Shown in pieces: positions 10,941 to 56,608 of a stretch of DNA of 64,000 bases. The notes beneath the pieces are model-generated. The model worked only from the letters and a program-made list of their open reading frames with translations, searched no databases and was not told the origin of the DNA. The stretch's first letter is position 1; every line of letters begins with the position of its first letter. The translations under genes were made by a program, and so were the position numbers. The stretch is from Betaproteobacteria bacterium (GTDB lineage: Bacteria; Pseudomonadota; Gammaproteobacteria; Burkholderiales; SG8-41). The stretch is from positions 1,350 to 65,349 of the forward strand of contig JACQOJ010000152.1 in NCBI GenBank assembly GCA_016202605.1, read 5' to 3'.

Positions 10941-11026
10941 GTGACTGGTGACCGGTGACCGGTGACTCGTGGGCCATGATTACGGAATTGTCAAGCTGAA
11001 GTGCATTGCTTTCCGGTCACTGGTCC
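10941..11026. repeat. Intergenic heptamer array with inverted partner (element R1)
   Basis: GTGACTG GTGACCG GTGACCG GTGACTC GTG (10941-10971). The partner CCGGTCACTGGTC at 11013-11025 contains the hprK stop codon (TCA 11017-11019 on the plus strand). Confidence 0.8.
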
Positions 11027-11958
11027 CCGCTCCTGATGTGCTGCGCCTGCCGTCCGATGAACTCGCGCGTGCTGTCGATGCCGCGCAGCAGCAGGACATA
11101 GTTGCGCACCGCCGCTTCGGTCAGCACCGCGAGATTGCGCCCGGCGGCCACCGGAATGGTGACCCGGTGGATGTCCACGCCCATCAATTGTTCGGTTCCC
11201 GGCTTGAGCGGCAGGCGTTCCATCGGAGCGAGCCCGGGTCCCGGCCGCTCCATGTGCACGATGAGCTTGACGTTCTTGCGCGGTCTCAGCGCCGCTTCAC
11301 CGAAAATGGTGCGGATATTGAGCACGCCCAGGCCGCGCACCTCCAGAAAGTCCCTGAGCAGAGGCGGACAGCGGCCTTCGATGGTTTCGGGCCCGATGCG
11401 ACAAAGCTCCACCACGTCGTCGGCGATAAGCCCGCTGCCGCGGCTGATCAGTTCCAGCGCGAGTTCGCTCTTTCCCACTCCGGAGTCACCGGTGATCAGC
11501 ACTCCCACGCCCAGCACGTCCAGGAACACGCCGTGCACGGTGGTCGACTCGGCGAGCGCGCGGGCGAGATAAGGGCGGAGCATCCACATGAGCTCGACGC
11601 TCGCCACCGGGGACGTGAAGAGCGGCGTCCCCGTGTTCTCGGCGACGGCGGCGAGCGGTGCCGGCGCCCTCCCGACGCCGGCTACGATGAAGCACGCGAG
11701 TTCGCGCGTGGCAACCTCGGCGAGCACCCTGCTGCAATGATCGGGGTCGAGCTCGTTCAGGTATTCGACTTCCGATGCGCCCAATACCTGGATCAGATTG
11801 GGATGGATGAAGTTGAGATGGCCGATCAGGCCCTTGGATGAATCCTTGGTAAGCTCGCTGTTGAGCGCCTTCGCGCCACCGCTGCGTCCGGCGACCCATT
11901 CAAGCTTGAGCTTGTCCTCGTTGTCCTCAAACAACCGGGCTATGCTGAGTTGCGCCAT
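11017..11958 (-). CDS. hprK: HPr kinase/phosphorylase
   Basis: GVFLDVLGVGVLITGDSGVGKSELALELISRG P-loop; LEVRGLGVLNIRTIFG. Overlaps the ptsN 3' end by 32 nt. Confidence 0.93.
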   Translation of the reverse strand: MAQLSIARLFEDNEDKLKLEWVAGRSGGAKALNSELTKDSSKGLIGHLNFIHPNLIQVLGASEVEYLNELDPDHCSRVLAEVATRELACFIVAGVGRAPAPLAAVAENTGTPLFTSPVASVELMWMLRPYLARALAESTTVHGVFLDVLGVGVLITGDSGVGKSELALELISRGSGLIADDVVELCRIGPETIEGRCPPLLRDFLEVRGLGVLNIRTIFGEAALRPRKNVKLIVHMERPGPGLAPMERLPLKPGTEQLMGVDIHRVTIPVAAGRNLAVLTEAAVRNYVLLLRGIDSTREFIGRQAQHIRSGDQ

Positions 11959-12412
11959 GCGGCCGCCATTCGGCGATCAGTTGATGCAGCTCGGCGGCGC
12001 CCTGCGCTGCCAGCAGCCGCTCCCGGAAAGGCTTGTCGCTGAACATCTGCGCCAGCTCGGACAGGATCTGCAGATGCAGGTCCGTCGCGCGGTCCGGGAC
12101 CAGCAACACGAATACGAGGTTGACGTTCTGTCCGTCGGGCGCATCGAACGGTATCGGCTGCTTCATTCTCACGAGCGCGCCGACCGCTTCCTTGAGGCCC
12201 TTGATCCTGCCGTGGGGAATCGCGATGCCCTGCCCCAGGCCGGTCGAACCCAGCTTTTCGCGCGCGAACAGGCTGTCGAAAACCACACTGCGCGCGAGGT
12301 CGTTGTTGTTTTCGAACAGCAGCCCGACCTGTTCGAACACGCGCTTCTTGCTGGATACGTCCAGGTCGAGCAATACGTTCGACACCGGCAGGAGGGGTGA
12401 GATCAGATTCAT
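11927..12412 (-). CDS. ptsN: PTS IIA-like nitrogen regulatory protein
   Basis: STGLGQGIAIPHGR active-site histidine region. Sits in the rpoN-hpf-ptsN context. Confidence 0.92.
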   Translation of the reverse strand: MNLISPLLPVSNVLLDLDVSSKKRVFEQVGLLFENNNDLARSVVFDSLFAREKLGSTGLGQGIAIPHGRIKGLKEAVGALVRMKQPIPFDAPDGQNVNLVFVLLVPDRATDLHLQILSELAQMFSDKPFRERLLAAQGAAELHQLIAEWRPHGATQHSPVV

Positions 12413-12467
12413 GATGTGACGCCGTGGGTGAGGAAGGAAATCCCGCCGCTCGGAGTGGTGCGGCCCG

Positions 12468-12794
12468 TCACGTGCCCTGATGCTTGATCGGGGTGTCGGC
12501 GTGCCGATGCGCGAGATTCTTTTCCTTGTGCTTGATGATGGTGCGGTCGAGCTTGTCGATCAGGCCGTCGATCGCCGCGTACATGTCGGTATCGACGCTC
12601 TCGCAGAAGATGTCCTTGCCGCGCACGCGCACGCTGGCTTCGATTTTCTGCTGCAGTTTCTCGACGGACAGGATGACGTTTACATCGATCACATGGTCGA
12701 AGTGATGGGTGATCCGCGCAAGCTTGCTCGCGATGTAATCACGGATTGCCGGCGTGATCTGGAGGTGGTGACCCGTGAGATGTAAATTCATCAT
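12468..12794 (-). CDS. hpf: Ribosome hibernation promoting factor (short HPF)
   Basis: MNLHLTGHHLQITPAIRDYI...; lies immediately downstream of rpoN. Confidence 0.92.
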   Translation of the reverse strand: MMNLHLTGHHLQITPAIRDYIASKLARITHHFDHVIDVNVILSVEKLQQKIEASVRVRGKDIFCESVDTDMYAAIDGLIDKLDRTIIKHKEKNLAHRHADTPIKHQGT

Positions 12795-12807
12795 GCGCTC
12801 CTTTCGA

Positions 12808-14247
12808 TTAGAGGGTCTTCCGCAGATTGACCGGCAGGATCTGCAAAGATTCCCGGTACTTGGCGACCGTGCGGCGGGCGACGACGATGCCCTGCTGTCC
12901 GAGAATCTCGGAAATCTGGCTGTCGCTTAGCGGCTTGCGCGAGTTTTCCGCGCCGACCAGCTGCTTGATGAGCGCGCGGATGGCGGTGCTGGATGCCGCG
13001 CCGCCGGTCTCGGTGGTGACGTGGCTGCCGAAGAAATACTTCAACTCGAAGATGCCTCGCGGCGTGTGCATGTATTTCTGCGTGGTGACGCGCGAGACCG
13101 TCGATTCGTGAAGGTCGAGGGCTTCGGCAATTTCCCGCAGCACCAGCGGCCTCATCGCCACCTCGCCGTGTTCGAAGAAATGCCGCTGGCGGTCGATGAT
13201 CGCCTGCGATACGCGCAGGATGGTATCGAAGCGCTGCTGGACATTCTTGATCAGCCACTTCGCTTCCTGCAGCTGGCCGGCCAGCTGCTGCGCTCCGGCA
13301 TTACGGTTGCGGCTCAGGATATCGGCATAGAGCCGGTTGATTCGCAGGCGCGGCATGGCGTCGGGATTCAGCGCGGCGAGCCAGACGCCCTTCACCTTTT
13401 TCACGATCACATCCGGAACCACGTAGCGCGTCTCTTCCGTGGAGAAATCGCGGCCCGGCTTGGGATTGAGCCCGGTAATGAGCTTCTGTACCGCGCGCAG
13501 GCAGTCGTCGTCGCAGCGCAGCGCCCTCTTGAGCCGGGTGAAATCGCGTGCCGCCAGCGCGTCCAGGTGGTTCCTGACGATTTCGAGCGCCTTGGCCCGG
13601 TATGGCGTTTCCTCGGGCAAGGCTGCAAGCTGCATCGCCAGGCACTCGCGCAAGTTGCGCGCGCCCACGCCCGCCGGCTCGAAATTCTGCAGATGCTTGA
13701 GCGCGATCTGCAGGTCTTCAGGCTCTATGGCGAGCTCCGGCGGAAGCGAGGCAAGCAAATCGGGGATGTCCTGCGCGAGATAGCCGTCGTCATCGAGCGA
13801 ATCGATGAGCAGCGCGACCAGCCTGCGGTCGCGCTCGGAAAGCATGGTGAGCGAGAGCTGTGAGAGCAGATGCGCCCGCAACGTCGGCGTGTCCGCCGCG
13901 ATCTGCGGGAAATCGCCGTCATCGCCGTCGTCACGCGGGGCAGCGCCGAACGGCCCGTCATCGACCGTGGTGAATTCGGTGCCCGTGTATTCAGGTTCGC
14001 GCGCCGCGTCGCCGCCTGCAGGCTCTTCCTGCGACGCGCTGAAATCGCCCGCGGCCTGCGTCCCCGGCGGGCCGGGCGGCTGATCGGACATGCCGTCCTC
14101 GCGCTCGAGCAGGGGGTTTTCCTGCAGAAAGCGTTCGAGTTCCTGGTTCAGTTCGAGCGTCGAGAGTTGCAGCAGCCGGATCGACTGTTGCAGCTGCGGG
14201 GTGAGTGTCAGGTGTTGCGATAGCCGGAGTTGTAGGGAGTGCTTCAT
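12808..14247 (-). CDS. rpoN: RNA polymerase sigma-54 factor
   Basis: MKHSLQLRLSQHLTLTPQLQQSIRLLQLSTLEL, an acidic region II, and the C-terminal RpoN box ARRTVAKYRE. Confidence 0.97.
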   Translation of the reverse strand: MKHSLQLRLSQHLTLTPQLQQSIRLLQLSTLELNQELERFLQENPLLEREDGMSDQPPGPPGTQAAGDFSASQEEPAGGDAAREPEYTGTEFTTVDDGPFGAAPRDDGDDGDFPQIAADTPTLRAHLLSQLSLTMLSERDRRLVALLIDSLDDDGYLAQDIPDLLASLPPELAIEPEDLQIALKHLQNFEPAGVGARNLRECLAMQLAALPEETPYRAKALEIVRNHLDALAARDFTRLKRALRCDDDCLRAVQKLITGLNPKPGRDFSTEETRYVVPDVIVKKVKGVWLAALNPDAMPRLRINRLYADILSRNRNAGAQQLAGQLQEAKWLIKNVQQRFDTILRVSQAIIDRQRHFFEHGEVAMRPLVLREIAEALDLHESTVSRVTTQKYMHTPRGIFELKYFFGSHVTTETGGAASSTAIRALIKQLVGAENSRKPLSDSQISEILGQQGIVVARRTVAKYRESLQILPVNLRKTL

Positions 14248-14322
14248 GCGTGTCTGGGCAACAAAGGCTATCCTTGAACTCCGGCGCGCGCCCGCACTGC
14301 TCCCCCGGCCACGGGCACGCCG

Positions 14323-15126
14323 CTAGAGGCGGAAATGCTCTCCTAGATAAACCTTTCGGACGCTCTCATTATAAACGATTTCGTCGGGCTTGCCGTAGGC
14401 GAGCACGGTGCCGTCATTGATGATGTAGGCGCGATCGCAGATACCGAGGGTCTCCCTTACATTGTGGTCGGTGATCAGCACGCCGATGCCGCGCTGCTTC
14501 AGGAACCCTATGATTTTCTGTATTTCGAGGACGGCGATCGGGTCGACGCCGGCGAATGGTTCGTCGAGGAGAATGAAGCGCGGCCCGGTGGCCAGAGCGC
14601 GGGCGATTTCGACGCGTCGCCGCTCGCCGCCCGAAAGACTGATCGCCGGGTTGTCGCGCAGGTGACCGATGTGCAGGTCGTGCAGAAGGTCGTCGAGCTT
14701 GTTGCGGATCTGATCCGGATCGTCGTTGCACAATTCCAGGATCGCGCGCACGTTGTCCGCGACCGAAAGGCGGCGGAATATCGATGTCTCCTGCGGCAGG
14801 TAGCTCAAGCCCAGTCGCGCCCGGCGGTGGATCGGCATGTGCGTGAGCTTTCTGCCGTCGAGATAGAGATCGCCGCCGTCCATGGGCACCAGCCCGACCA
14901 TCATGTAGAAACAGGTGGTCTTGCCGGCGCCGTTGGGTCCGAGCAGCCCGATGACTTCGCCGCTCCGCACCTCGAGCGAGACGTCCATGACGACGACCCG
15001 CGACCGGTAGCGCTTCTTCAGGCGTTCGGCCTTGAGTTCGCTCACGCGCGGGGACGGGGCCGCGGAAGCGGCGCCCGCGGGCGGCTGCGCGCCGCCGCTC
15101 GGCAGATGATTATTTCGTGGTCGCAC
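14323..15126 (-). CDS. lptB: LPS export ABC transporter ATP-binding protein
   Basis: [39 protein letters not shown]. The N-terminal 27 aa may be spurious; GTG 15045 is an alternative start. Confidence 0.93.
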
Positions 15127-15754
15127 CAGGTTGGTCGGGCGGTGTTTTGACGTTGTCCGCGGGCGTCCGCGCCGCGGGCGCCGCCACCGGCTTTTCCTTG
15201 GGTTTGGGCTGCAGCACCGCCTGCACGCGGCCCTCCGGGTTGTTCGGCGTCGCCGCCTTCGGTCCGCCGCCGACGACCTGGAAGAATTCGGTCGCGGAAT
15301 CGTACGAAATGTAATTGCCGCGCACCTCGTCCTGCCCGCGCTTCATCACCGCCCGCGTGAACATCTGCATCTTGTCGGCGCGCCCGTCATATTCGATGCG
15401 CTCGGCCCAGCCCTCGATGTATTCGTCGTAGCCTTCGCGTTTCTGCCGGAAGTAAGCGAGATTGCCCCACGCCGTCCCGTGCTTGAACCCCTCGCGGTCC
15501 TGCCGCACCTGCATGCGGTCGCCGCGAATGGTGAGGGTGCCCTGCGTCAGCACTACGTTGCCCTCGAAGGTCGCGATCTGCTTCGCGTCGTCCACGGTCA
15601 CGCGGTCCGCTTCCAGGTTTATCGGCTTGTCGCGGTCGGCTTTTTCCGCGTGGACCGCGGCGGCGAAAATCAGCGCGCAACACGCGGCCAGCGCCGGGAG
15701 GCGACGCCGGACCCGGTCAGCCGCCCGGCCGGCGCACGCGTTTTTTCGGATCAT
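15110..15754 (-). CDS. lptA: LPS transport periplasmic protein LptA
   Basis: Signal peptide, OstA-like [39 protein letters not shown], and a lptC-lptA-lptB context. Confidence 0.88.
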
Positions 15755-16313
15755 GGTAGGTGCCCTTGACTCTGGAAAGCAGTTTCAGAACCTGGGTCTC
15801 GCTGTTCAATTCTAAGCCAACCGCGTTAACGACGGTATTGGCGTCGGTAAGCGTCACCGCGCGATCCGTGCGGGCGATGTTGTCGTCCGGAATCACGTGG
15901 AGATAGCTCGTGCGCATCACGAGCTCGCTTTTGTCGGTGTAAGCCGCGCGCCGGACCAGCACGTCGTCCCTGAAGTAGATATTTTCTCCCTCGCTCGAAA
16001 TCAGCGCTTCCCTCGAAGTGATCGTGACCGGCGCCGGAACCGCCGCATAGCTCACGAATTTCGGGGACTGCAGATGGGTGCTGTCGTCGTCGGGGTAGTG
16101 CACCATTTTTTCGGCGAACAGCGTGTGCTTGATTCTGCCGTCGGGGGCCATGCGCACCGCCGACAGGCCCTCGACGATATAGTCGGGATCGTGACGGGCA
16201 ACGGCGGCGCGCCCGGCAGCCGGCGGTTGCACGAAGCGGTCAAGCCAGAACGTGAGAGCCGCCAGCGCCGAAAGCAGCAGCAGCGGGAACCATGCGGTGA
16301 ATCGGTCGCTCAT
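15717..16313 (-). CDS. lptC: LPS export system protein LptC
   Basis: N-terminal anchor MSDRFTAWFPLLLLSALAALTFWL. Position is between kdsC and lptA. Start set to ATG 16313. Confidence 0.8.
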   Translation of the reverse strand: MSDRFTAWFPLLLLSALAALTFWLDRFVQPPAAGRAAVARHDPDYIVEGLSAVRMAPDGRIKHTLFAEKMVHYPDDDSTHLQSPKFVSYAAVPAPVTITSREALISSEGENIYFRDDVLVRRAAYTDKSELVMRTSYLHVIPDDNIARTDRAVTLTDANTVVNAVGLELNSETQVLKLLSRVKGTYHDPKKRVRRPGG

Positions 16314-16342
16314 GGGTTGGCGGCGGCGTTGACGGGGCGGTC

Positions 16343-16867
16343 CTATTGCAGATACGGCGCGAGCTGCGCTTCGAAAGTTCCCTGCGCGTGCATGATAAGT
16401 TCGCACAGTTCGCGTACCGCTCCATGTCCGCCACGCGCGCGCGTCACGTAATGCGCGTCGCGCCGCACTGCGGCCGGCGCGTCCGGCACGGATACCGCGA
16501 GCCCGCAGCGCCTGAGCACCGGCAGGTCGACGACATCATCCCCCATGTACGACGCGGATGCCGCGTCGAGCCGGCAACGGGCGAGCAGATCGCGAAAGGC
16601 TGCATGCTTGTCGCCCGCGCCCTGATGGAGGAGCTCGATGCCGAGATCCTGCACGCGCAGCGCCACGGCCCGGGAGGTCCGGCTGGTGATGATCGCAAGC
16701 TGCACGCGGCTCGCCCGCAGCATTTTCATGCCGTGGCCGTCGCGCACGTTGAACGCCTTCAGCTCGGTGCCGGCGTCGGTGTAATAAAGCGCGCCGTCGG
16801 TGAGCACGCCGTCCACATCGAAGACGGCGAGGCGCACGCGCCTGGCCCGGTCGTAGATATCCTGCAT
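16343..16867 (-). CDS. kdsC: 3-deoxy-D-manno-octulosonate 8-phosphate phosphatase
   Basis: HAD motif LAVFDVDGVLTDG, then YMGDDVVDLPVL. Confidence 0.93.
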   Translation of the reverse strand: MQDIYDRARRVRLAVFDVDGVLTDGALYYTDAGTELKAFNVRDGHGMKMLRASRVQLAIITSRTSRAVALRVQDLGIELLHQGAGDKHAAFRDLLARCRLDAASASYMGDDVVDLPVLRRCGLAVSVPDAPAAVRRDAHYVTRARGGHGAVRELCELIMHAQGTFEAQLAPYLQ

Positions 16868-16946
16868 GAGGGATGCCGATGGGCGTTGAGGGTTTGGAAT
16901 CTGGTGTCAGGAACGAGCCGGTGAAATCACGCTCGACGCTCGGCGG

Positions 16947-17945: not shown

Positions 17946-18058
17946 CGGCGGCAAGTATAGCAGAACGGGCGTGCCTCCTTCCTCGGAAACGACCGCAGGC
18001 GCGCTTGCAATTCGTTGTCGATAGGGCATTATTCCGGGAGATCCACCGGCAGGAAAAA

Positions 18059-20026: not shown

Positions 20027-20037
20027 GCGAGGGGCGC

Positions 20038-20063
20038 AAAAAAGCCCGCGCGCGGCGGGCTTT
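20038..20063 (-). terminator. Rho-independent terminator downstream of the major pilin gene (weaker in the plus direction for the antiporter)
   Basis: Stem AAAGCCCGC / GCGGGCTTT with a 5-nt loop. Read on the minus strand it is followed by a T6 tract. It lies 25 nt after the pilin stop. Confidence 0.75.
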
Positions 20064-20087
20064 CCTGCATTCGCGGCGCACGCCGTC

Positions 20088-24312: not shown

Positions 24313-24430
24313 CCGGGAGGTCGTGAGATCGGAAGGTCGGGAAGTCGTGAGATCGGAAATTCGTGCGAGGTCCCACCTCGCTCTTCCGCGCTGACGCTCT
24401 TATGCTCTCACGTTCTCACGCCCTCGCGTG
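24313..24430. repeat. Intergenic 8-nt-period array pair (element R2) between the convergent kinase and pilin genes
   Basis: GTCGTGAG ATCGGAAG GTCGGGAA GTCGTGAG ATCGGAAA TTCGTGCG, facing CTCTCACG TTCTCACG CCCTCGCG. Confidence 0.7.
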
Positions 24431-30277: not shown

Positions 30278-30363
30278 AATGACGAATGATGAATGATGAA
30301 CGATGAATGACGGGCCGGGCCTTGGGGAAGATCGGGACCGTGTCCATCATTCCGTATCAGTCG
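30278..30363. repeat. Intergenic heptamer array with partial inverted partner (element R3)
   Basis: AATGACG AATGATG AATGATG AACGATG AATGACG (30278-30312). The partner GTCCATCATTCCGTATCAGTCGT spans the GspE-family stop (TCA 30357-30359). Confidence 0.7.
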
Positions 30364-38987: not shown

Positions 38988-39023
38988 GCGCGGTAACTTA
39001 TCGCAAACCAAAACCAAAAGCCA

Positions 39024-39908
39024 ATGGGCGGGATTGGGTCCTATAATCCGGTTATGCAAAACGCCGATCCCGCGCTGCTGCGGCAGCTGTCCGGAAACAG
39101 CACGCCCTACCGCGACCCGCTCGCGGTCATCGAGTGGGCGCGCCTCGATACGATGAGTTTCTGGCTCCCGGAGCCGGCTCTTTCGCTTTACGGCTTGCCC
39201 GAATACACGGGGCTTCCGGTAGCGACGCGGCGCCGGCTCTCCCAGTACGAGTTCATCAACGTGATGCAGACCGGACTGGGGGTGGAACGCCTGTTTCTGC
39301 AGCGGATTTCGCGCAGCCTCGGCGCGGCGTTGCCGCGGGCCGAGTACGAGTATTTTCTCCACGAACTGCGCGAGGAAGCCGGGCACAGCCTGATGTTCCT
39401 CAAGGCGATCGAAGCGAGCGGCCTCGAGGTGCCGGCGGGAGCATGGGACGTGACGCCCTGGATGGAGCGGCTGGCGCGGAACCTTCCGGCGCGCGGCGCG
39501 CTTTTCTGGCTCGCCACCGTGATCGCGGAAGACGTGCCGGACAGGTTCAACCGCTACGTGCGCAACGAGTCGGAGGTCCTCAATCCGGCGATCAGGCAGA
39601 TCTGCACCTTGCATATCGTGGACGAAGCTCGCCACATTGCAGCCGCCCGTGCCCGGCTGGAAGCCGCCCTGAAAGGCCGCGCGGCGCGCCGGTTTCTTCT
39701 GATGCCGTTCATGAACCTCGTGTTCCGGAAATTCGTCGCCACGTTTTTCCTGCCGCCGGCGCGGTTTTACGAACTGGCGGGCCTCTCGCACGGGCACTGG
39801 TGGCGCCGGATGGCGGCGGCGAATCCGGCGCACCGGCGCTTCATCGCGCAGTGCCTGGCGCCGACGCTGCGCATGCTCGAAGGCTACGGTTTAAGACCGG
39901 GGCTTTAA
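39024..39908 (+). CDS. Diiron oxygenase (AurF-like family)
   Basis: Two E-X2-H iron-ligand motifs, ELREEAGHS and IVDEARHI, in a four-helix-bundle-like sequence. Start is either ATG 39024 or ATG 39054. Confidence 0.7.
   Translation: MGGIGSYNPVMQNADPALLRQLSGNSTPYRDPLAVIEWARLDTMSFWLPEPALSLYGLPEYTGLPVATRRRLSQYEFINVMQTGLGVERLFLQRISRSLGAALPRAEYEYFLHELREEAGHSLMFLKAIEASGLEVPAGAWDVTPWMERLARNLPARGALFWLATVIAEDVPDRFNRYVRNESEVLNPAIRQICTLHIVDEARHIAAARARLEAALKGRAARRFLLMPFMNLVFRKFVATFFLPPARFYELAGLSHGHWWRRMAAANPAHRRFIAQCLAPTLRMLEGYGLRPGL
39042..39047 (+). promoter_or_regulatory. Perfect TATAAT -10 box 7 nt upstream of ATG 39054 (possible leaderless start of the diiron oxygenase)
   Basis: TATAAT at 39042-39047, ATG at 39054. 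No good -35 element was found. Confidence 0.3.
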
Positions 39909-45192: not shown

Positions 45193-46095
45193 ATGGTTCC
45201 CGCAATCCAGGTCCAGGATATCTTCAAGCATTACGGTGCGGTGCGCGCGCTCGCCGGCGTGAGCCTCGAGATCGCCCAGGGGGAATTCTTCGGGCTGCTG
45301 GGGCCCAATGGGGCGGGCAAGACGACCCTCATCAGCATCCTCGCGGGCTTGACGATCGCCTCGTCCGGCAGCGCAAGCGTGCTGGGCTTTGACGTGCGCG
45401 AACGGTATCGCGAGGCAAGGCGCGCGCTGGGCGTCGTGCCGCAGGAGCTCGTGTTCGACCCGTTTTTCACGGTGCGCGAGACGCTTGCCATCCAGTCCGG
45501 CTATTTCGGCATCCGCGACAACCGCGGCTGGATCGAGGAGGTGATGCATCACCTCGATCTCACGGAAAAGGCCGACACCAACATGCGCGCGCTATCGGGC
45601 GGGATGAAGCGCCGGGTGCTGGTGGCGCAGGCGCTGGTGCACAAACCGCCGGTGATCGTTCTCGATGAGCCGACCGCGGGTGTGGACGTCGAGCTGCGGC
45701 AGGCGTTATGGCGGTTCGTCCGCAGGCTGAACGCCGACGGCCACACCATCGTGCTCACCACGCATTACCTGGAGGAGGCCGAGGCGCTGTGCGGGCGCAT
45801 CGCCATGCTCAAGCAGGGACGCATCGTCGCGCTCGACACGACGCAGAACCTGCTCAGGATGCATTCCGGATGCTACGTGGAATTGCGGCTGGAGCCCGAC
45901 CGGCTGCCCGAACGGCTCGCGCCGCGGGTGGTCGAACGCCGCGCGAACGGCGCATACCGGCTCGCCCTCGGCGACTACAACGACGTCGAAGGGCTGATGG
46001 GGGAGATTCGCGCGAGCGGGGTGCGGGTGCAGGAGATGGAAGTGATGCAGCCCGACCTCGAGGAAGTGTTCGTGCAGATCATGCAGAAGGCGTGA
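45193..46095 (+). CDS. ABC-2 type transporter ATP-binding protein (YadG-like)
   Basis: [38 protein letters not shown]. Confidence 0.9.
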   Translation: MVPAIQVQDIFKHYGAVRALAGVSLEIAQGEFFGLLGPNGAGKTTLISILAGLTIASSGSASVLGFDVRERYREARRALGVVPQELVFDPFFTVRETLAIQSGYFGIRDNRGWIEEVMHHLDLTEKADTNMRALSGGMKRRVLVAQALVHKPPVIVLDEPTAGVDVELRQALWRFVRRLNADGHTIVLTTHYLEEAEALCGRIAMLKQGRIVALDTTQNLLRMHSGCYVELRLEPDRLPERLAPRVVERRANGAYRLALGDYNDVEGLMGEIRASGVRVQEMEVMQPDLEEVFVQIMQKA

Positions 46096-46167
46096 TGAGC
46101 GATGAGCGAAGAGCGATCAGCGATGGGTAATGCACACGTCACCCGTCATCCGTCACCCATCACGGGG
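46091..46167. repeat. Intergenic heptamer array pair (element R6), seeded at the upstream TGA stop
   Basis: CGTGATG AGCGATG AGCGAAG AGCGATC AGCGATG, facing CGTCACC CGTCATC CGTCACC CATCACG. The outer 7 bp, CGTGATG and CATCACG, are complementary. Confidence 0.75.
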
Positions 46168-47165: not shown

Positions 47166-48434
<1,269 letters not shown>

Positions 48435-48533
48435 ACCGCACTGCCGCCGGCGCGCGCTGCCGGGAGCGTTCTTCGACGCGCCGCCGCCCTTTGCGGTAGA
48501 ATCCACTTTCCTTTTTTGTATCATCGGCTTGCC

Positions 48534-50476: not shown

Positions 50477-50480
50477 ACGC

Positions 50481-50592
50481 GAAGGACGCAAAGGACGCAA
50501 AGGACGCAAACCAAGGACAAGGGGAGTTCCGCAGGTTTCTTGATTGGAATCTTTGCGTTCTTTGTTTTCTTGGCGTCCCTGGCGTTCCCGCC
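50481..50592. repeat. Intergenic 9-nt-period inverted array pair (element R7), followed by a T7 tract
   Basis: GGACGCAAA x3 (50483-50509), facing TTTGCGTTC TTTGTTTTC TTGGCGTCC (50552-50578). The units pair in register allowing G-U wobbles. T7 at 50593-50599. Confidence 0.8.
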
Positions 50593-50603
50593 TTTTTTTG
50601 AAC

Positions 50604-51680
50604 ATGTCGAAGAGACCTGAAGAGATCATCCGTGACGAGATCCGGGCGCTCGCCGCGTACCATGTGCCGGAGAGCGGCGGCATGGTGAAGCTCGATGCGA
50701 TGGAAAATCCCTACCGATTGCCCGCGGATCTGCAGGTCGAGATCGCGCATCTCGCGGAAACGGCGGCGCTCAACCGCTATCCCGACCCGGCCGCGGCGCG
50801 CCTCAAGTCGCGGCTGCGGGAAGCCATGCAGATCCCGGCGGACGCGGATGTCCTGCTCGGCAACGGATCGGACGAAATCATCCAGATGCTGATCATGGCG
50901 GCGGCACGTCCGGGAACGGCAGTGCTGGGGGTTGAGCCGTCCTTTGTCATGTTTCGCATGATCGCGACCTTTTGCGGAGTGCGATTCGTGGGCGTGGAAC
51001 TGACGGCGGACTTCATGCTCGATGTCGAGCGGATGCTGGCGGAAATCGCCCGGCACCAGCCGGCACTGATTTTCCTCGCGTACCCCAATAATCCGACGGG
51101 CAATCTGTTCGACGCCGACGCGGTCCGGCGCATCATGGAGGCGGCGCCCGGCCTCGTGGTGGTGGACGAGGCGTATCACGCGTTCGCCGACGCGACGTTC
51201 ATGCCGCGCCTCGTGGATCACCCGAACCTGCTGGTGATGCGCACGCTGTCGAAGCTGGGGCTTGCCGGATTGCGGCTCGGAATACTGTGCGGCCGGAAGG
51301 CGTGGCTCGAGCATGTCGACAAAGTGCGCTTGCCGTATAATATCAACGTGCTCACTCAACTCATCGCGGAGAAGGTGCTGCAGCACGGCGATCTTCTGCG
51401 GCAACAGGCGGCGGCGATCAAGGCGGAGCGCGCACGGGTTTTCAATGGGCTTCAAAACATGCCCGGCATCCGGCCTTGCCCCACGCAGGCCAATTTCATC
51501 CTGTTCAGGACGACTGCGGCGAACCGTATTTTTGACCGCCTCAAGCAACGCGGCATCCTGATCAAGAATCTGCATGGAGCGCATCCCGCGCTTGCCGAGT
51601 GCCTGCGCGCGACGATCGGGACTCCGGAAGAAAACACGCGCTTTCTCGATGCCTTGAAGGACGCCGTCAACGCAGCGTGA
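50604..51680 (+). CDS. hisC: Histidinol-phosphate aminotransferase
   Basis: [44 protein letters not shown] (PLP lysine). Start set to ATG 50604. Confidence 0.95.
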
Positions 51681-51728
51681 ATCCCGCACGTTTCAGCTTT
51701 CAGGCCCATTACATCCATCCACGACGCC

Positions 51729-52316
51729 ATGCGTGAGGCTACAGTCACCCGCAAGACGCTGGAGACGCAGATCAGCGTGAAGCTCAATCTCGACGGCGGC
51801 GGCAGGTCGCGGCTCGCCACCGGCGTGCCGTTTCTCGACCACATGCTCGATCAGGTTGCGCGTCACGGCGTGTTCGACCTCGAGGTCAGCGCGAAAGGCG
51901 ACCTCCACATCGATTCCCACCACACTGTCGAGGACATCGGCATCACGCTCGGCCAGGCGTTTGCGAAGGCGGTCGGGGACAAGACGGGCGTGCGCCGCTA
52001 CGGGCATGCGTACGTGCCGCTCGATGAGGCACTGTCGCGCGTGGTGGTCGATCTGTCGGGTCGTCCGGGGCTGGAAATGAACGTCAAATTCGTGCGGGCG
52101 CGGATCGGGGAATTCGACGTCGATCTGGCGCGGGAGTTTTTTCAAGGCTTCGTCAACCATGCGTTCGTGACGTTGCACATCGACAATCTGAAGGGGGAGA
52201 ACGCGCATCACCAGGCGGAGACCGCCTTCAAGGCGTTCGGCCGGGCGCTGCGCATGGCGGTCGAACTCGACGCGCGCAGCGCCGGGGTGCTGCCTTCCAC
52301 AAAAGGCAGCCTGTGA
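51729..52316 (+). CDS. hisB: Imidazoleglycerol-phosphate dehydratase
   Basis: [45 protein letters not shown]. Confidence 0.97.
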
Positions 52317-52400
52317 GTTCAGGGTTCAGCGTCAAGAGCGTCAGCCTGAAGTCAAGCGGCCCCGCATCCTGAACGCTCAACGCCCGACGCTCAACGATCT
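52314..52400. repeat. Intergenic 7/8-nt array pair (element R8), starting at the hisB TGA
   Basis: TGAGTTCA GGGTTCA GCGTCAA GAGCGTC AGCCTGA AGTCAAG, facing CCTGAACG CTCAACG CCCGACG CTCAACG. Confidence 0.7.
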
Positions 52401-52401
52401 C

Positions 52402-53094
52402 ATGATTGATATCGCTGTTATCGACTACGGGATGGGCAATCTGCGTTCGGTGGCCAAGGCCATCGAGCACGTGGCGCCGCGTCTCGGGGTCGCGGTCACC
52501 AGTGATCCACGTGTCGTGCGGGACGCGTCGCGCGTCGTGTTTCCGGGACAGGGGGCGATGCCTGATTGCATGCGCGAAATGGAGGCGCGCGGCTTGCGTG
52601 ACGCGGTCGTCGTCTCCGCGCGGGAGAAACCCTTTCTCGGCATCTGCATCGGCCTGCAAATGCTTTTCGAGCGCAGCGAGGAGGGGGACGTAGCGGGCCT
52701 CGGCCTGCTGTCCGGCAAGGTGCGGCGCTTTCACACCGGGGCGCTTTTCGACGCGCAGGGCAACAAGTTGAAGGTCCCGCACATGGGCTGGAACGAGGTG
52801 CAGCAGACGATGAGCCACCCGCTCTGGGACGGCATCGCGTCGGGGAGCCGGTTCTACTTCGTGCACAGCTATTTCCCGGAGCCCGCGGACCCGCGGATCA
52901 TTGCCGGGTGCAGCCGGTATCCCGGTTCATTCGCCTGCGCCGTAGCCAGCGGAAATCTTTTTGCGGTGCAATTCCACCCGGAAAAAAGCCAGGCAGCCGG
53001 CCTGCGGCTGCTCGCCAATTTCGTGGCCTGGCAGCCGGAACGGGGCAGTCGTGCCGGCGCCGGGCGGCAGCCGGTCGCAGACGTTAACCGGTAA
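52402..53094 (+). CDS. hisH: Imidazole glycerol phosphate synthase, glutamine amidotransferase subunit
   Basis: IAVIDYGMGNLRSV, GICIGLQML (catalytic Cys), FHPEKS. About 25-aa C-terminal tail beyond the usual end. Confidence 0.95.
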   Translation: MIDIAVIDYGMGNLRSVAKAIEHVAPRLGVAVTSDPRVVRDASRVVFPGQGAMPDCMREMEARGLRDAVVVSAREKPFLGICIGLQMLFERSEEGDVAGLGLLSGKVRRFHTGALFDAQGNKLKVPHMGWNEVQQTMSHPLWDGIASGSRFYFVHSYFPEPADPRIIAGCSRYPGSFACAVASGNLFAVQFHPEKSQAAGLRLLANFVAWQPERGSRAGAGRQPVADVNR

Positions 53095-53109
53095 GTCCCG
53101 AGGTTGTGT

Positions 53110-53214
53110 ATGATTGAGCCATGCGTGTTCGCGACACCGCCTGCCACCTGCGTTCCCCTGATCGGTCCTGACTTCGTTTTCCTTCGCAGCATCCCCATGG
53201 AGATCGTTTCGTAA
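53110..53214 (+). CDS. Candidate 34-codon small ORF in the hisH-hisA spacer
   Basis: GAGG sits 6 nt upstream of ATG 53110. Product MIEPCVFATPPATCVPLIGPDFVFLRSIPMEIVS. There is no homology evidence; it could be non-coding. Confidence 0.2.
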   Translation: MIEPCVFATPPATCVPLIGPDFVFLRSIPMEIVS

Positions 53215-53243
53215 GTTTTCCGCTGTAAGACGGCTTTCCCTTT

Positions 53244-53996
53244 ATGCTGATCATTCCGGCGATTGATTTAAAGGATGGCAAGTGCGTACGCCTCAAACAG
53301 GGGGCGATGGAAGATGCGACAGTGTTTTCCGACGATCCCGGCGCCATGGCGAGGCGCTGGCTCGAGCAAGGCGCGCGGCGCCTGCACGTCGTCGATCTCA
53401 ACGGGGCGGCCGCCGGGCGCCCGAAGAACGGGCGCGCGGTGAAGGCGATCGCCAGCGCGGTCGGCGAGCGGATCCCGATTCAGCTCGGCGGCGGCATCCG
53501 CGATCTGGACACGATAGAGCAGTACCTCGATCAGGGAGTCAGTTACGTCGTCATCGGCACCGCCGCGGTCAAGACCCCGGGTTTCCTGCATGACGCCTGC
53601 AGTGCATTCGCGGGGCACGTGCTCGTCGCGCTCGACGCCAGGGACGGCAAGGTCGCGGTCGACGGATGGTCGAAGATGACCGGGCACGATGTGGTCGATC
53701 TCGCCAGGAAGTTCCAGGACTACGGCGTGGAGGCGGTGATCTACACCGACATCGGCCGCGACGGCATGTTGACCGGGGTCAACATCGACGCGACGGTCGC
53801 CCTCGCGCGCGAGCTGACGGTGCCGGTCATCGCGAGCGGGGGCATCACGAATCTCGACGACGTGAAGGCGTTGTGCGACGTGGAATCGGAGGGCATTATC
53901 GGCGCGATCACCGGCCGCGCGGTGTACCAGGGCACCCTGAATTTCGCCGAAGCGCAGAAGCTGGCCGACACACTCAGCAGGAAGCGCGAGGAGTGA
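53244..53996 (+). CDS. hisA: 1-(5-phosphoribosyl)-5-[(5-phosphoribosylamino)methylideneamino]imidazole-4-carboxamide isomerase
   Basis: [30 protein letters not shown]. Confidence 0.96.
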
Positions 53997-54037
53997 GGGG
54001 TGAGGTAAAACCGCGCGCGATTTTCCTTACGCCTCAC
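53993..54037. repeat. Intergenic hairpin built on the GTGAGG unit (element R9), including the hisA stop
   Basis: GTGAGGGGTGAGGTAAAA (53993-54010), loop CCGCGCGCGA, then TTTTCCTTACGCCTCAC (54021-54037). Confidence 0.75.
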
Positions 54038-54043
54038 GCAGTT

Positions 54044-54814
54044 ATGGGATTAGCGAAGCGCGTCATTCCGTGCCTCGACGTGACCGCCGGCCGGGTGGTG
54101 AAGGGCGTCAAATTCGCCGGCTTGCGGGACGCCGGAGATCCGGTGGAAATCGCGCGCCGTTACGACGAGCAGGGCGCGGACGAACTCACGTTTCTGGATA
54201 TCACGGCGAGCAGCGACGAGCGCGGCTTGCTCCTGCATATCGTTGAGGACGTGGCCGCGCAGGTGTTCATTCCGCTCACGGTCGGCGGCGGCGTGCGCAC
54301 GGCGGACGACGTGCGCAGGCTGCTCAATGCCGGGGCCGACAAGGTCAGCATCAATACCGCGGCCGTGCAGAATCCCCGGCTGGTCGCCGAGTGCACCGCC
54401 CGGTATGGCTCGCAGTGCATCGTCGTTGCCGTTGACGCCAAGCGGGTTGACGGCGGCGCCGCGCCGCGCTGGGAAGTCTTCACCCACGGGGGGCGCCGGC
54501 CGAGCGGCCACGACGCGCTAGAGTGGGGTAGACGAATGCAGCAGCTCGGCGCGGGCGAGATATTGCTTACCAGCATGGACCGCGACGGCACGCGGAAGGG
54601 CTTCGATCTCGAGCTGACGCGCGCATTCTCCGACGCGCTGGACATTCCGGTCATCGCGAGCGGCGGCGTCGGCAATCTCGATCACCTCGTTGACGGCATC
54701 ATCAAGGGGCACGCGGACGCCGTGCTCGCAGCGAGCATTTTTCACTACGGTGAGTACACGGTGCGCCAGGTGAAGGAGCACATGGCGCGTCACGGCATCG
54801 AAGTCCGGCTGTAA
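54044..54814 (+). CDS. hisF: Imidazole glycerol phosphate synthase, cyclase subunit
   Basis: [45 protein letters not shown]. Confidence 0.97.
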
Positions 54815-54825
54815 GGATCCAAGCT

Positions 54826-54944
54826 GGATGTTCAAAGTTCAAGGTTCGGTGTTCTATGTCCACGGCGCTGCGATTCGTGTTAAAACTAACAACCTTGAAC
54901 CTTGAACTTTGAACCTGGAACCTGGAACTTCAAACCGCGAACCC
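54826..54944. repeat. Intergenic heptamer array with perfect 18-bp inverted repeat (element R10)
   Basis: GTTCAAAGTTCAAGGTTC (54830-54847) is the exact reverse complement of GAACCTTGAACTTTGAAC (54897-54914). The right arm continues as about 8 units of GAACCTN up to the hisI ATG. Confidence 0.9.
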
Positions 54945-55334
54945 ATGAAGCACGACTGGCTCGACAAGGTCAACTGGGCGCAGGACGGCCTGGTGCCGGT
55001 GGTTACACAGGAAGCGGGATCGGGCCGCGTGCTCACCGTCGCGTGGATGAACCGGGAAGCGCTCGGCAAGACGGTTGAGACCGGGGAAGCCCACTACTGG
55101 TCGCGGTCGCGCAGAAAGCTGTGGCACAAGGGCGAGGAATCGGGTCACGTGCAAAAGGTGAAATCGATCCGCCTCGACTGCGACGAGGACGTGCTTCTGA
55201 TCGAAGTTGAACAAGTGGGCGGAATCGCGTGTCACACTGGACGGCACAGCTGCTTTTTCCGGAAATTCGACGGCGGCAAGTGGGTGGCGACCGACCCGGT
55301 GCTCAAGGACCCCAGGGACATCTACGGCAAATGA
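54945..55334 (+). CDS. hisI: Phosphoribosyl-AMP cyclohydrolase
   Basis: [53 protein letters not shown]. Confidence 0.95.
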
Positions 55335-55651
55335 TCGACGCAACGATACTGAGACGGCTGGGCGAGGTCATCGCGGCGCGCAGACAGGGCGACCCCGCGA
55401 CTTCGTACGTCGCCGGCCTCTTCGCCAGGGGCCACGACGCCGTGCTGAAGAAGGTGGCGGAAGAGGCCGCGGAGACCCTGCTTGCCTCCAAGGACGGTGA
55501 TAAACTGCATATTGTTCGCGAGGCAGCCGATTTGTGGTTTCACTGCCTGATATTGCTTGCATGGCACGGCCTCGGTCCTGACGACGTGCTGGCCGAATTG
55601 CGGCGCCGCGAGGGTATCTCCGGGATCGACGAAAAGACGTCGCGTGGCTGA
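55331..55651 (+). CDS. hisE: Phosphoribosyl-ATP pyrophosphatase
   Basis: ATGA overlap with his[42 protein letters not shown]. Confidence 0.93.
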
Positions 55652-55759
55652 ACCGGACGTTCTCCGACGCCGGCCGACGTACCAGTCGGCGGAGCGCCCG
55701 CACCGGGTCCGCTGGAGCGACGGCGGGCCGCCGATACCGTGAAATAGAGGAGTTTGAAC

Positions 55760-55990
55760 ATGGGTTCAATTAGCATCTGGCACTGGCTGATCGTATTGCT
55801 GGTCGTCATTCTGGTGTTCGGCACCAAGAAGCTCCGTAACCTGGGTACCGACCTTGGGAGCGCCGTCAAGGGATTCAAGGAGGGGATCAAATCCGAGGAC
55901 GAGAAATCCGCGCAGGCCAAGACGGAAATTCCACCGGGCACCGGTCAGACGATAGAAGGCGAAGCGAAAAAGGAAACCCCCAAGGTGTAA
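55760..55990 (+). CDS. tatA: Twin-arginine translocase subunit TatA
   Basis: [39 protein letters not shown] sits 7 nt upstream of ATG 55760. Confidence 0.95.
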
Positions 55991-56072
55991 GCGGTAAGCG
56001 GTAAGCCGTACGCGGTAAGGTGTCCAACGCACTTGTCTTACGGCTCGCTGCTCATCGCTCACTGCTCACGGG
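55987..56072. repeat. Intergenic heptamer array pair (element R11), seeded at the tatA TAA
   Basis: GTAAGCG GTAAGCG GTAAGCC GTACGCG GTAAGG, facing GTCTTAC GGCTCGC TGCTCAT CGCTCAC TGCTCAC. TAA recurs at a 7-nt period, so it falls in all three frames. Confidence 0.8.
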
Positions 56073-56078
56073 TTTTGC

Positions 56079-56483
56079 ATGTTCGACATCGGTTTTTCCG
56101 AGCTCATGGTCATCGCGGTGGTTGCGCTGATCGTGATCGGGCCGGAACGACTTCCGAAAGTCGCACGCACGCTGGGACATCTCTTCGGGCGCATGCAGCG
56201 CTACGTCAATGATGTCAAGACCGACATCAGCCGCGAAATGGAGCTCGATGAACTGAGGAAGCTGCAATCGAGCGTGCAGGAGGCGGCGCACTCGATCCAG
56301 GAGACGGTGTCGCGGGAAATCAGCGCAACGGAGAGCGAACTGGAGAAGATCGCGGACACCGCGCCCGGCGCGCCGGAGCCCGCGGAGACGGCCCCCGAAC
56401 CGTCGTCGCCGGCAGGCGCTTCGCCTCAACTCGAACTCGAGCTGGGCTCCGCACCGCAGACGCCGGCGCAGAAGCAGGCCTAG
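56079..56483 (+). CDS. tatB: Twin-arginine translocase subunit TatB
   Basis: MFDIGFSELMVIAVVALIVIGPERLPKVARTLG. Confidence 0.93.
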   Translation: MFDIGFSELMVIAVVALIVIGPERLPKVARTLGHLFGRMQRYVNDVKTDISREMELDELRKLQSSVQEAAHSIQETVSREISATESELEKIADTAPGAPEPAETAPEPSSPAGASPQLELELGSAPQTPAQKQA

Positions 56484-56558
56484 ATGTTTGAAACCTCCGC
56501 GATGCGCGCTGCGCGACAATCGGGGTCGCGGACGCGATGGTCCGGCAGCCGCGCCTTG

Positions 56559-56608
56559 CCGGTCACCGGTCACCGGTCACGAGTCACGTCTCACCGGTTT
56601 TCACCGGC
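56559..56608. repeat. Intergenic heptamer array (element R12), same unit family as R1 in opposite orientation
   Basis: CCGGTCA CCGGTCA CCGGTCA CGAGTCA CGTCTCA CCGGTTTTCACCGG. Its reverse complement shares the 19-nt string GTGACCGGTGACCGGTGAC with 10948-10966. Confidence 0.85.

Follow-up and report, generated by a model that had tools for sequence, protein, structure and literature searches.

Heptanucleotide tandem repeats have been known in bacteria since 1990 (short tandemly repeated repetitive sequences, STRR), and since 2007 it has been recognised that in many bacteria no other long simple repeat is as over-represented; to our knowledge, neither their cause nor their function has been established. 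The small four-helix-bundle proteins of family PF05635 (S23p, or '23S rRNA intervening-sequence' protein) are abundant, and we know of no function that has been assigned to them. Here, a 64 000-nt stretch of DNA from an uncultured betaproteobacterium (the window, C126:1350–65349 of the draft genome G000) was analysed, in which spacers between protein-coding genes carry tandem arrays of 7–9-nt units. Such an element lies between the stop of one gene and the start of the next and consists of a 5′ tandem array, a unique loop or a gene, and an inverted 3′ array; on the transcribed strand the 5′ arm is usually purine-rich, in G000 usually with TGA, and the 3′ arm is pyrimidine-rich. With moderate confidence, the arrays of the window are taken to belong, as members without a gene, to a family of heptamer-repeat hairpins that spans the lineage and the full-length form of which encloses a PF05635 gene. 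The new point is the link between arrays and PF05635 genes, that is, their co-occurrence in 151 genomes and the fact that such repeats enclose the genes; in G001 and G006, two species of the same genus, both the PF05635 gene and the repeats are missing. This link, for which several independent tests speak, makes the old heptamer puzzle testable, and the lineage of G000 has unusually diverse repeats.

Several repeat systems of this kind have been described. In several lineages, heptamers were reported to exceed all other long simple repeats in over-representation, and the proposed explanation was that the polymerase has a footprint of about 7 nt (Mrazek, Guo and Shah 2007, as cited in PMC4679880 and PMC4692102). 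The GGGAATC repeats of Xanthomonas and the GGGGAYT repeats of Nostoc are intergenic and often form inverted pairs, the G-rich strand being the coding one where the repeat follows a stop within 50 bp and the non-coding one where it precedes a start; their location between the same genes is kept across species, while length and sequence vary, and neither XCC0516 nor S23p is mentioned in that work (Rehm et al. 2015, PMC4692102). Direct TAACTGA repeats stand ahead of starts without a Shine–Dalgarno sequence in marine Beggiatoaceae, Cyanobacteria and Bacteroidetes (MacGregor 2015, PMC4679880). In Coxiella burnetii, the 23S rRNA intervening sequence is an S23p open reading frame (ORF) in a 28-bp stem that is cut by RNase III, with tandem GACAGAT heptamers in strain-dependent copy number (Warrier et al. 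2016, PMC4990558); the S23p structure of X. campestris is a homopentameric toroid (as cited in PMC4990558). An earlier note on the window, made from the sequence alone, knew of no described element class that matched its arrays, which was wrong, since heptameric long simple sequence repeats (LSSR), cyanobacterial STRR, Xanthomonas GGGAATC and Beggiatoaceae TAACTGA repeats are all published (PMC4679880, PMC4692102).

PF05635 genes were found at three places in G000. One (C37:48218–48517) lies between (GATGAAC)n and (GTTCATC)n, with the stop of an upstream gene on one side and, on the other, the start of an ORF whose translation reads as RND-transporter-like; the second, on C7, is flanked by long (AACAACG)n arrays, and the third, on C82, is preceded by an array of the 8-mer GGGAGRGC. 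At this last site (C82:16–600, a contig end) the gene follows a truncated N-terminal ORF of a tyrosine recombinase (integron-integrase-like), as if the cassette interrupted that ORF. The G000 protein matches PDB entry 2GSC, XCC0516 of Xanthomonas campestris, which was deposited as five chains (E = 6e-23). Across the family, 52 of 55 PF05635 loci had an array of period 7–9 within about 450 nt, and where period-7 arrays were present on both sides they were inverted copies of one unit in 33 of 36 loci. Read on the sense strand of the gene, the upstream arm was purine-rich in 34/40 and the downstream arm pyrimidine-rich in 38/42, which is the polarity of the gene-less hairpins; TGA or TAA was present in only 18 of 40 upstream arms. 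Units of the window recur as arms of PF05635 genes in relatives: AATGATG flanks such a gene in G003 (L295), GTGAGCG/GCTCACT arms enclose one in G007 (L304; compare tatA–tatB of the window), GAACCTT/GTTCAAG arms do so in G008 and G011 (compare hisF–hisI), and the GTGAGGC-like unit of the window also serves as a PF05635 arm in relatives. Each genome has few unit families, and these match the ones around its own PF05635 genes: dispersed arrays matched PF05635 arms of the same genome in 52% of cases and those of other genomes in 31% (permutation p = 0.0005). Closely related PF05635 proteins shared a unit in 22% of pairs, compared with 2.7% of other pairs (Mantel p = 0.018).

The number of PF05635 copies tracked array density across 29 genomes, the samples of relatives being 20–120 kb each and partly his-centred. 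Three copies were found in G000, two to nine in array-rich genomes and none in G001, G006 and the array-free families, and a single copy in each of G018 and G021, where arrays are few. The relationship was then put to a forward test on five unsampled genomes and held in all of them: G007 has five copies and 9 arrays in 44 kb, and G002 four copies and 3 arrays in 34 kb, while the arrays counted in the gene-negative genomes (0 copies) were 1 for G012 (80 kb), 3 for G015 (80 kb) and 0 for G004 (19 kb). Order-wide, at least five hits of the pattern (TGAN4)3TGA were obtained in 28 of 36 PF05635-positive genomes (median 12) versus 21 of 115 negative ones (median 0), with a Fisher odds ratio of 15.7 (p = 1e-10) and a Spearman rho of 0.58; these genome-association statistics ignore kinship, and the hit count inflates single long arrays. 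A gammaproteobacterium, G561, was the sole genome among 401 of its class with arrays of the Xanthomonas-type unit GGGAATC. Its single PF05635 gene (L313, G561:C14 1440–1925) lies between the accB stop and the accC start, is apparently decayed (profile positions 1–64 only) and is flanked by GGGAATC GGCAATG GGGAATC GGGAATC ... GATTCCC ... ATTCCC GATTCCC.

Several observations weigh against the proposed reading of the arrays. No PF05635 ORF or recognisable fragment was found in the window or in any of 240 his–tat loci, and a relaxed tblastn search of G000 for decayed genes gave one doubtful remnant (C84:7423–7596); with no PF05635 ORF between their arms, the window elements are filed as gene-less relatives and not as cassettes. 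About 215 arrays stand against only three PF05635 genes detected in G000, which is 74% complete. Eight PF05635-positive genomes have fewer than five pattern hits and 21 negative ones at least five (for example G090 with 52 and G095 with 74), some of these being one long array counted repeatedly, and related genomes are non-independent data points in the 151-genome association. Co-occurrence also gives no direction, and PF05635 genes could insert into pre-existing hairpins. The absence of a G–U excess in the stems, described below, argues in addition against strong selection on an RNA stem. The fragment on C84, possibly what is left of a cassette, is weak (24–64 aa, E = 0.006–0.3) and has an 8-mer array, GGTGAAGG, next to it. 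The idea that the loops in general are decayed PF05635 genes was dropped, only this one doubtful remnant having been found genome-wide.

Arrays were counted throughout G000 (2.8 Mb in 156 contigs), an array being defined as at least three copies, for periods 6, 7, 8 and 9. Genes were called with a codon-usage ORF caller, which is rough (86% coding, 13.7% of the DNA intergenic), and the intergenic and genic counts are therefore approximate. Period 7 gave 215 arrays, period 6 67, period 8 48 and period 9 53. The period-7 arrays comprised 131 intergenic ones, 33 that straddle a gene end and 51 genic ones, that is, a density about 16-fold higher between genes; about half of the genic arrays were GC-only low-complexity units (e.g. 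GCGCGCC) or lay at mis-called starts, and a dozen were less than 50 nt from a called start. Arrays were present in 11% of co-directional, 12% of convergent and 7% of divergent spacers. The units fall into 88 classes, few with G runs, and the dominant families are GTGACCG, GATGAAC, CGTGGTT, GTAAGCG/GTGAGCG, TTGAACC and CTGACGA. Identical units were found in 2.4% of array pairs versus 0.15% for random intergenic heptamers or shuffled units (16-fold), and units with at most one mismatch were shared by 23.5% of pairs from different spacers within 5 kb, 9.8% of distant pairs and 2.4% of shuffled ones. Units are thus not independent of one another, and purely local slippage does not predict such sharing. 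The earlier statement that the primary sequence differs between sites is accurate in that sequences vary, and needs amending in that units are not private to a site and a few families recur genome-wide.

Among relatives, period-7 arrays at 80 hisA loci were found mainly in the closest ones. The closest HisA (84% identity) is from a metagenome-assembled genome labelled 'Betaproteobacteria bacterium', and a metagenome scan for population-level copy-number variation returned nothing closer than 84% HisF identity. Most genomes of the same GTDB family have 1–6 arrays per 10 kb, with the his–tat contigs as hot spots; G001 and G006, which belong to the same genus, yielded a single array in 102 kb and none in 116 kb, respectively (1 in 218 kb together), and about 430 kb from other families of the order likewise gave just one. 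A plan of stop, purine-rich array, loop, inverted array and ATG is kept in about 14 genomes at hisD–hisC, hisB–hisH, hisA–hisF, hisF–hisI and tatA–tatB, with units that vary by genome (GTGAGGG, GAGAGGC, GGATTGA, GTGAAGG, GGTAATG, GTAAACG and the 9-mer GTCACAGAG), both arms changing together; some of these units, e.g. GAGAGGC, hold no stop triplet at the same spacers. Orthologous spacers therefore retain the element across genera while both arm sequences shift together, and the comparison of orthologous spacers proposed in the earlier note gave conserved position and architecture with replaced units. In G001 and G006 the spacers are array-free, and that of hisA–hisF measures about 10 nt. Over 240 loci surveyed, stems were frequent only in close relatives, those at hisA–hisF, for example, being present in 14 of 34 close relatives and in 5 of 98 others; in the 15 closest the hisA–hisF stem ends 0–14 nt before the start in all but one. 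Where his–tat stems had a clear bias, the 5′ arm was purine-rich in 66 and pyrimidine-rich in 8. The longest array seen, about 26 copies of GGATTCA/GGATCAA, occupies the hisF–hisI spacer of L142 (G008:C93, about 8285–8545) and includes a run of N, an assembly gap. A second unit type of 8–9 nt (ACGCAAAGG, GCCGCCAAG, GTCACAGAG / CTCTGTGGC) forms the same kind of hairpin, in the window at 50477–50596 and in the hisD–hisC, hisA–hisF and hisF–hisI spacers of L003, L014, L028, L199, L235, G010, G011 and G017; lineages further away, labelled Gallionellaceae and Nitrosomonadales, have this type too.

Stop triplets in the units were compared with shuffled units. TGA/TCA was present in the cyclic unit of 99 of 149 intergenic arrays (32.6 expected, a 3-fold enrichment), TAA in 14/149, about background, and TAG in 1/149 (31.9 expected, a 30-fold depletion), so that of the three stop triplets TGA alone is enriched. 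The gene stops of G000 are TGA in 57%, TAG in 25% and TAA in 18%. TGA-aligned units have the weak consensus TGA-(A/C/G)-(C/G)-G-(G/A), the next base being mostly A or C and rarely T; A or C after TGA makes a weak termination context in E. coli. Of 41 arrays separated from the nearest gene by more than 25 nt, 23 still had TGA. Beside stop codons, TGA arrays were on the sense strand 30 times and on the antisense strand 10 times, and in 27 of 42 cases the gene's own stop formed the first in-phase copy. Sense-TGA arrays in co-directional spacers began a median of 3.5 nt past the stop and TCA-type arrays ended a median of 13.5 nt ahead of the next start; on the transcript, the stop-side arm was 60% purine and the start-side arm 58% pyrimidine. 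Seeding of arrays by the stop codon was considered and set aside: arrays also begin right after TAG or TAA stops that lie outside the unit, and TAG never becomes a unit. Mimicry of Shine–Dalgarno sequences by the purine-rich arm was likewise rejected, the cores GGAG/GAGG/AGGA/AAGG not being enriched (3 versus 7.1 expected); GGTGA was enriched in purine-rich arms (10/35 versus 0.9 expected). The 3′ end of 16S rRNA was not found in the G000 assembly.

Pairing of the arms was evaluated by comparison with shuffled sequences and by folding. An inverted partner better than all 20 shuffles was found for 71 of 209 arrays, about a third, so the statement that most arrays have an opposing array applies to the window and not to the whole genome. 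A fold z below −2 was obtained for 34% of array spacers versus 11% of other spacers (Mann–Whitney p = 3e-9); pairing beyond chance on folding is thus confirmed for about a third of the arrays, the rest being without a partner. Stems covered a median of 78% of the spacer, starting a median of 2 nt past the stop and ending a median of 19.5 nt before the start. On the transcribed strand, ungapped stems had 78 G–U versus 91 A–C mismatches in G000 and 114 versus 119 in his–tat spacers of the 240 loci. A stem selected as RNA should tolerate G–U far better than A–C, and with no such excess the arms are more likely kept alike at the DNA level, or young; selection for RNA pairing was accordingly rejected. 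Only 21 of 209 arrays had TTTT within 15 nt, too few for intrinsic terminators, and genes with an array just upstream had Shine–Dalgarno-like motifs in 17% of cases versus 37%. Loss of single-strand exonucleases was also considered as a cause of the arrays; ExoI (PF08411) is absent from 19/19 family genomes, array-bearing or not, and the ExoVII gene xseA is present in nearly all of them, a pattern that is uninformative. Of the earlier suggestions on origin and use, turnover by slippage appears plausible, and that of RNA hairpins stands in so far as many arrays form long hairpins inside operons, with no sign of selection on pairing. Many long hairpins inside operons leave a role in RNA processing or decoupling as the best functional guess from the sequences.

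A sequence of events consistent with these data can be outlined. Replication slippage would make the arrays grow and homogenise, and template switching or gene conversion at the DNA level, and not selection on RNA pairs, probably keeps the two arms alike and thus complementary. Within the operon transcript the arms would pair into a stem of 15–45 bp, which, by analogy with rRNA intervening sequences, RNase III would cut, separating neighbouring cistrons; the RNase III gene rnc is encoded in G000. With a TGA in its 5′ arm, an element might settle on a stop codon or take its place, whatever the frame, with no extension of the upstream protein. The PF05635 protein, a pentamer, possibly binds the 7-nt array that is cognate to it, and the spread or upkeep of arrays may depend on it. 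A bolder form of this last idea, put forward tentatively and with considerable doubt, is that PF05635 pentamers are sequence-specific partners of heptamer arrays, one 7-nt unit per paralogue (about one unit per subunit), and are needed in trans to create, spread or maintain their own arms as well as gene-less arrays of the same unit. Papers joining genome-wide heptamer arrays to PF05635 were searched for with partial coverage of the literature, and none was found.

Other explanations were weighed against the proposed kinship with PF05635 cassettes. The arrays might simply be ordinary long simple repeats that arise by slippage on the spot, at a length of about 7 nt that suits the polymerase, with partners supplied by template switching and PF05635 genes as unrelated passengers that have a tendency to lie in, or enter, hairpins of this kind. 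The dominance of period 7 with shoulders at 8 and 9, the published idea of a 7-nt polymerase step (Mrazek 2007, as cited in PMC4679880 and PMC4692102), the lack of a G–U excess, which fits a DNA-level origin, and the absence of gene remnants from the loops all agree with such an origin. A universal trait of the polymerase, however, leaves it unexplained that G001 and G006 have one array in 218 kb and sister genomes 1–6 per 10 kb, that units recur 16 times more often than by chance, that dispersed units match the PF05635 flanks of the same genome, and that 33 of 36 genes flanked on two sides have inverted arrays of one unit; slippage as the whole explanation is for these reasons judged unlikely. 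Selection for intercistronic hairpins that couple translation, in which the terminating ribosome would melt the base of the stem and free a start without a Shine–Dalgarno sequence, appears improbable. It would account for stems that begin 2 nt past the stop and end 19.5 nt before the start (medians; 0–14 nt at hisA–hisF in all but one of 15), for the scarcity of Shine–Dalgarno-like motifs downstream of arrays, for the hisA–hisF spacer of about 10 nt in array-free relatives and for the fact that every co-directional case in the window joins adjacent genes of related function. The same geometry is, however, expected if arrays merely grew to fill a short spacer; convergent spacers (12%) are as array-rich as co-directional ones (11%), two thirds of the arrays have no partner arm, and a G–U excess is missing.

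The earlier note had itself proposed that arrays are retained as translation barriers, stop triplets at 7-nt intervals closing all three frames of either strand. The 3-fold enrichment of TGA, the sense-strand preponderance of TGA arrays at stops (30 versus 10) and the 27 of 42 genes whose stop is the first in-phase copy are as this idea would have it. It did not survive the remaining counts and is largely refuted, which makes it very improbable: TAG is depleted 30-fold and TAA not enriched, although they serve as the stop of 25% and 18% of genes, TGA is mostly followed by A or C, TGA enrichment persists far from genes, relatives have stop-free units at the same spacers, and only 18 of 40 upstream arms of PF05635 genes hold TGA or TAA. 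Intrinsic terminators or attenuators, or mobile palindromes of the type of repetitive extragenic palindromes (REP) moved by REP-associated tyrosine transposases (RAYT), have an equally slim chance. Long stems, the T7 run after the hisD–hisC stem, the presence in G000 of more than 200 REP-like elements and the 7 GTGACCG arrays that abut one point in this direction. Yet a T run accompanies only 21 of 209 arrays; most window cases lie in the his–tat row or between adjacent co-directional genes, the downstream members of which are presumably still transcribed; and the array sequences vary by site, with no conserved flanks apart from the GTGACCG sub-family.

In the window itself (64.6% G+C), arrays were located with Tandem Repeats Finder (TRF) and each was then checked by reading the sequence (Table 1). 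The claimed family of intergenic tandem 7–9-nt arrays was borne out, with eleven spacers in place of the at least twelve first counted; two shorter arrays, at hisB–hisH (52317–52397) and hisA–hisF (53993–54037), were missed by TRF. An opposing arm was present in 10 of 11 spacers, the exception being the tatB–tatC array. Ungapped stems had from 10/11 up to 33/45 Watson–Crick pairs, with loops of 11–50 nt; three of them were weakly paired or very short (24314/24384, 29/45; 46091/46139, 17/26; 30291/30342, 11 bp). Stop codons were said to lie inside or at the edge of an arm in at least seven cases, which is so for hprK, the ABC ATPase, hisD, hisB, hisA and tatA, whereas the TGA of the GspE/MshE-like ATPase lies 5 nt outside the arm. 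All elements of the window sit between protein-coding genes, none being in helix 25 or 45 of 23S rRNA, and every co-directional case lies between adjacent genes of the same direction and of related function.

Table 1. Repeat arms in the spacers of the window (positions are those of the window; WC, Watson–Crick pairs)
Feature	Position	Strand	Basis and remarks
hprK–rapZ array, GTGACYG ×3.7	10941–10966	−	TRF and reading; on the minus strand the 3′ arm, rich in pyrimidines; the rapZ start follows after 14 nt
hprK–rapZ partner arm, CCGGTCACTGGTCCCC	11013–11028	−	TGA-type 5′ arm holding the hprK stop (11017–11019); 14/16 WC, 50-nt loop
8-mer array, CGGGAGGT/CGTGAGAT ×5.4	24314–24358 (TRF 24314–24356)	.	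Left arm of a 45-position imperfect stem, convergent genes; fold −60 kcal/mol
Inverted 8-mers, right arm of the 24314 element	24384–24428	.	29/45 WC
AATGATG ×4.7	30278–30310	.	TRF; convergent genes; 14 nt past the TGA of the upstream gene (30261)
Short partner arm, GTCCATCATTC	30342–30352	.	10/11 WC; the stop of the GspE/MshE-like ATPase (30357, minus strand) is 5 nt away
GATGAGC ×4.6	46091–46125 (TRF 46094–46125)	+	Starts at the TGA of the ABC ATPase (yadG-like; 46093) and fills the 27-nt spacer
CACCCGT ×4.4	46133–46164 (TRF to 46163)	+	Partly complementary 3′ arm, 17/26 WC; within the first 13 codons of the ABC-2 permease
hisD–hisC 5′ arm, 9-mer ACGCAAAGG ×3.8	50477–50510	+	Immediately after the hisD TAA (50474); stem 33/45 WC
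hisD–hisC 3′ arm, inverted 9-mer TCTTGGCGT ×4.2	50550–50596 (TRF to 50587)	+	Followed by a T7 run and the hisC start
hisB–hisH left arm, GTTCAGG GTTCAGC GTCAAGA	52317–52345	+	Starts at the hisB TGA (52314)
hisB–hisH right arm, CTGAACG CTCAACG CCCGACG CTCAACG	52369–52397	+	Read in the sequence, stem comparison
hisA–hisF 5′ arm, GTGAGGG GTGAGGT	53993–54009	+	Includes the hisA TGA (53994); 14/17 WC
hisA–hisF 3′ arm, TTTTCCTTACGCCTCAC	54021–54037	+	Ends 6 nt before the true hisF start (54044)
hisF–hisI 5′ arm, GTTCAAAGTTCAAGGTTCGG	54830–54853	+	54830–54847 is the exact reverse complement of 54897–54914
hisF–hisI 3′ array, AACCTTG/AACCTGG, about 7 units	54891–54943	+	TRF; ends at the hisI ATG (54945)
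tatA–tatB 5′ array, GTAAGCG ×4.7	55987–56019	+	TRF; first copy is the tatA TAA (55988)
tatA–tatB 3′ array, GCTCACT ×3.9	56039–56069 (TRF 56043–56069)	+	Ends 9 nt before the tatB start
tatB–tatC solo array, CCGGTCA ×5.7	56559–56598	+	Ends 10 nt before the tatC start; nearly self-complementary unit (ACCGGT)

Gene names are supported by NCBIfam for RapZ, HPr kinase, the GspE/MshE-like ATPase, the ABC ATPase, the ABC-2 permease, HisD and TatA; his gene names other than hisD are from synteny and homology. An Rfam search of the window at gathering thresholds returned tRNA only. The tatA gene (55760–55990) is hidden by an antisense ORF in a simple ORF call. The longest hisF ORF (from 53993) overlaps hisA, and relatives align only from residue 16–17, so that the true hisF start is the ATG at 54044 and the spacer is a 47-nt hairpin. 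At hisB–hisH the polarity is reversed, with the TCA-type arm on the 5′ side; the unit family found there is present at the same junction in 8 relatives. CCGGTCA, the unit of the tatB–tatC array, is the commonest unit class of G000 (15 arrays). At the N-terminus of the ABC-2 permease (46123–46164) the CACCCGT repeat is apparently translated as an extension of the protein; residue 13 is the first one covered by the NCBIfam profile, and no in-frame ATG follows further on. The hexamer AAACCA (×3.2) at 39005–39024 is outside the heptamer class.

The elements have practical consequences for reading such genomes. They add 50–130 nt to many co-directional junctions, replace stop codons and can extend into the first codons of a gene (ABC-2 permease, 46123). 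They may also break assemblies; two of the three PF05635 genes of G000 lie at contig ends. Tandem arrays of period about 20–42 nt (a REP-like unit plus spacer) were likewise seen within about 200 nt of contig ends at C13:1–160, C136:1–200, C155:4530–4640, C25:3600–3680 and C145:25130–25230 (coordinates with minus-strand offsets unconverted), which suggests that repeats break the assembly. If the partnership of PF05635 proteins with arrays is true, it would explain the excess of heptanucleotides in Burkholderiales, Xanthomonas, cyanobacteria and others, and would tie that excess to the origin of rRNA intervening sequences.

Among known intercistronic repeats, the enterobacterial REP and bacterial interspersed mosaic elements (BIME) are hairpins close behind stops, which can shield upstream mRNA from 3′ exonucleases or stall terminating ribosomes; the REP itself is a single conserved palindrome, about 35 nt long, which a RAYT transposase copies. 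The arrays of G000 resemble them in placement, but have tandem-repeat arms of site-specific sequence in 88 classes with no shared flanks. A separate REP/BIME-like element is present in more than 200 copies in G000 (e.g. C37:56037–56260, C43:17561–17870, C150:175–330), none of them in the his–tat block of the window; it consists of two hairpins, GTCATTCCCG-N5-CGGGAATCC and ATGCCCGTCTACACGGGCAT, the first of which has the ATTCCC-N8-GGGAAT form of the Neisseria dRS3 repeats, and 7 GTGACCG heptamer arrays lie directly 5′ of it.

The TAACTGA repeats and the Calothrix STRR (the latter as described in PMC4692102) share with the present arrays TGA/TAA heptamers, an intergenic position near starts without a Shine–Dalgarno sequence and a patchy spread; as far as those accounts go, they have a single fixed unit in mostly direct orientation, whereas the arms in G000 are inverted and of many units. 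Tandem copies of TAACTGA, CCCCAGT, TTGGTCA and CAACAGT numbered 0, 1 (a doublet), 0 and 0 in G000. The GGGAATC and GGGGAYT repeats, of which G000 has no tandem copies, are similar in their intergenic inverted pairs, strand polarity and kept position with varying sequence; they have one dominant G-rich unit, which has been read as a former of G-quadruplexes, in contrast to the 88 unit classes of G000. Likeness to the LSSR (5–11 nt) lies in 7-nt tandem units, occurrence in scattered lineages (Burkholderia, Xanthomonas campestris ATCC 33913), a mostly non-coding location and a proposed slippage origin. G000 falls within the definition of that class, having units of 5–11 nt above chance with period 7 predominant and units that are not multiples of 3 concentrated outside coding DNA. 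The LSSR work, as described in PMC4679880 and PMC4692102, gives neither a gene link nor inverted arms nor a stop-to-start placement; here, the trait switches on and off within one genus.

With the S23p intervening sequences, the cassette family has in common a PF05635 ORF within an inverted-repeat stem, heptamers in the 5′ arm and decay of the ORF. Those sequences occupy helix 45 of 23S rRNA and their cutting by RNase III has been shown, whereas the elements of the window lie between protein genes, are without an ORF and are only predicted to be cut. When the window elements are compared with S23p-type cassettes, the PF05635 ORF between the arms, which is present on C37, C7 and C82, is absent; the stem of inverted arms is found in 10 of 11 spacers (three of them weak or very short), and the units and the polarity of the arms are the same.

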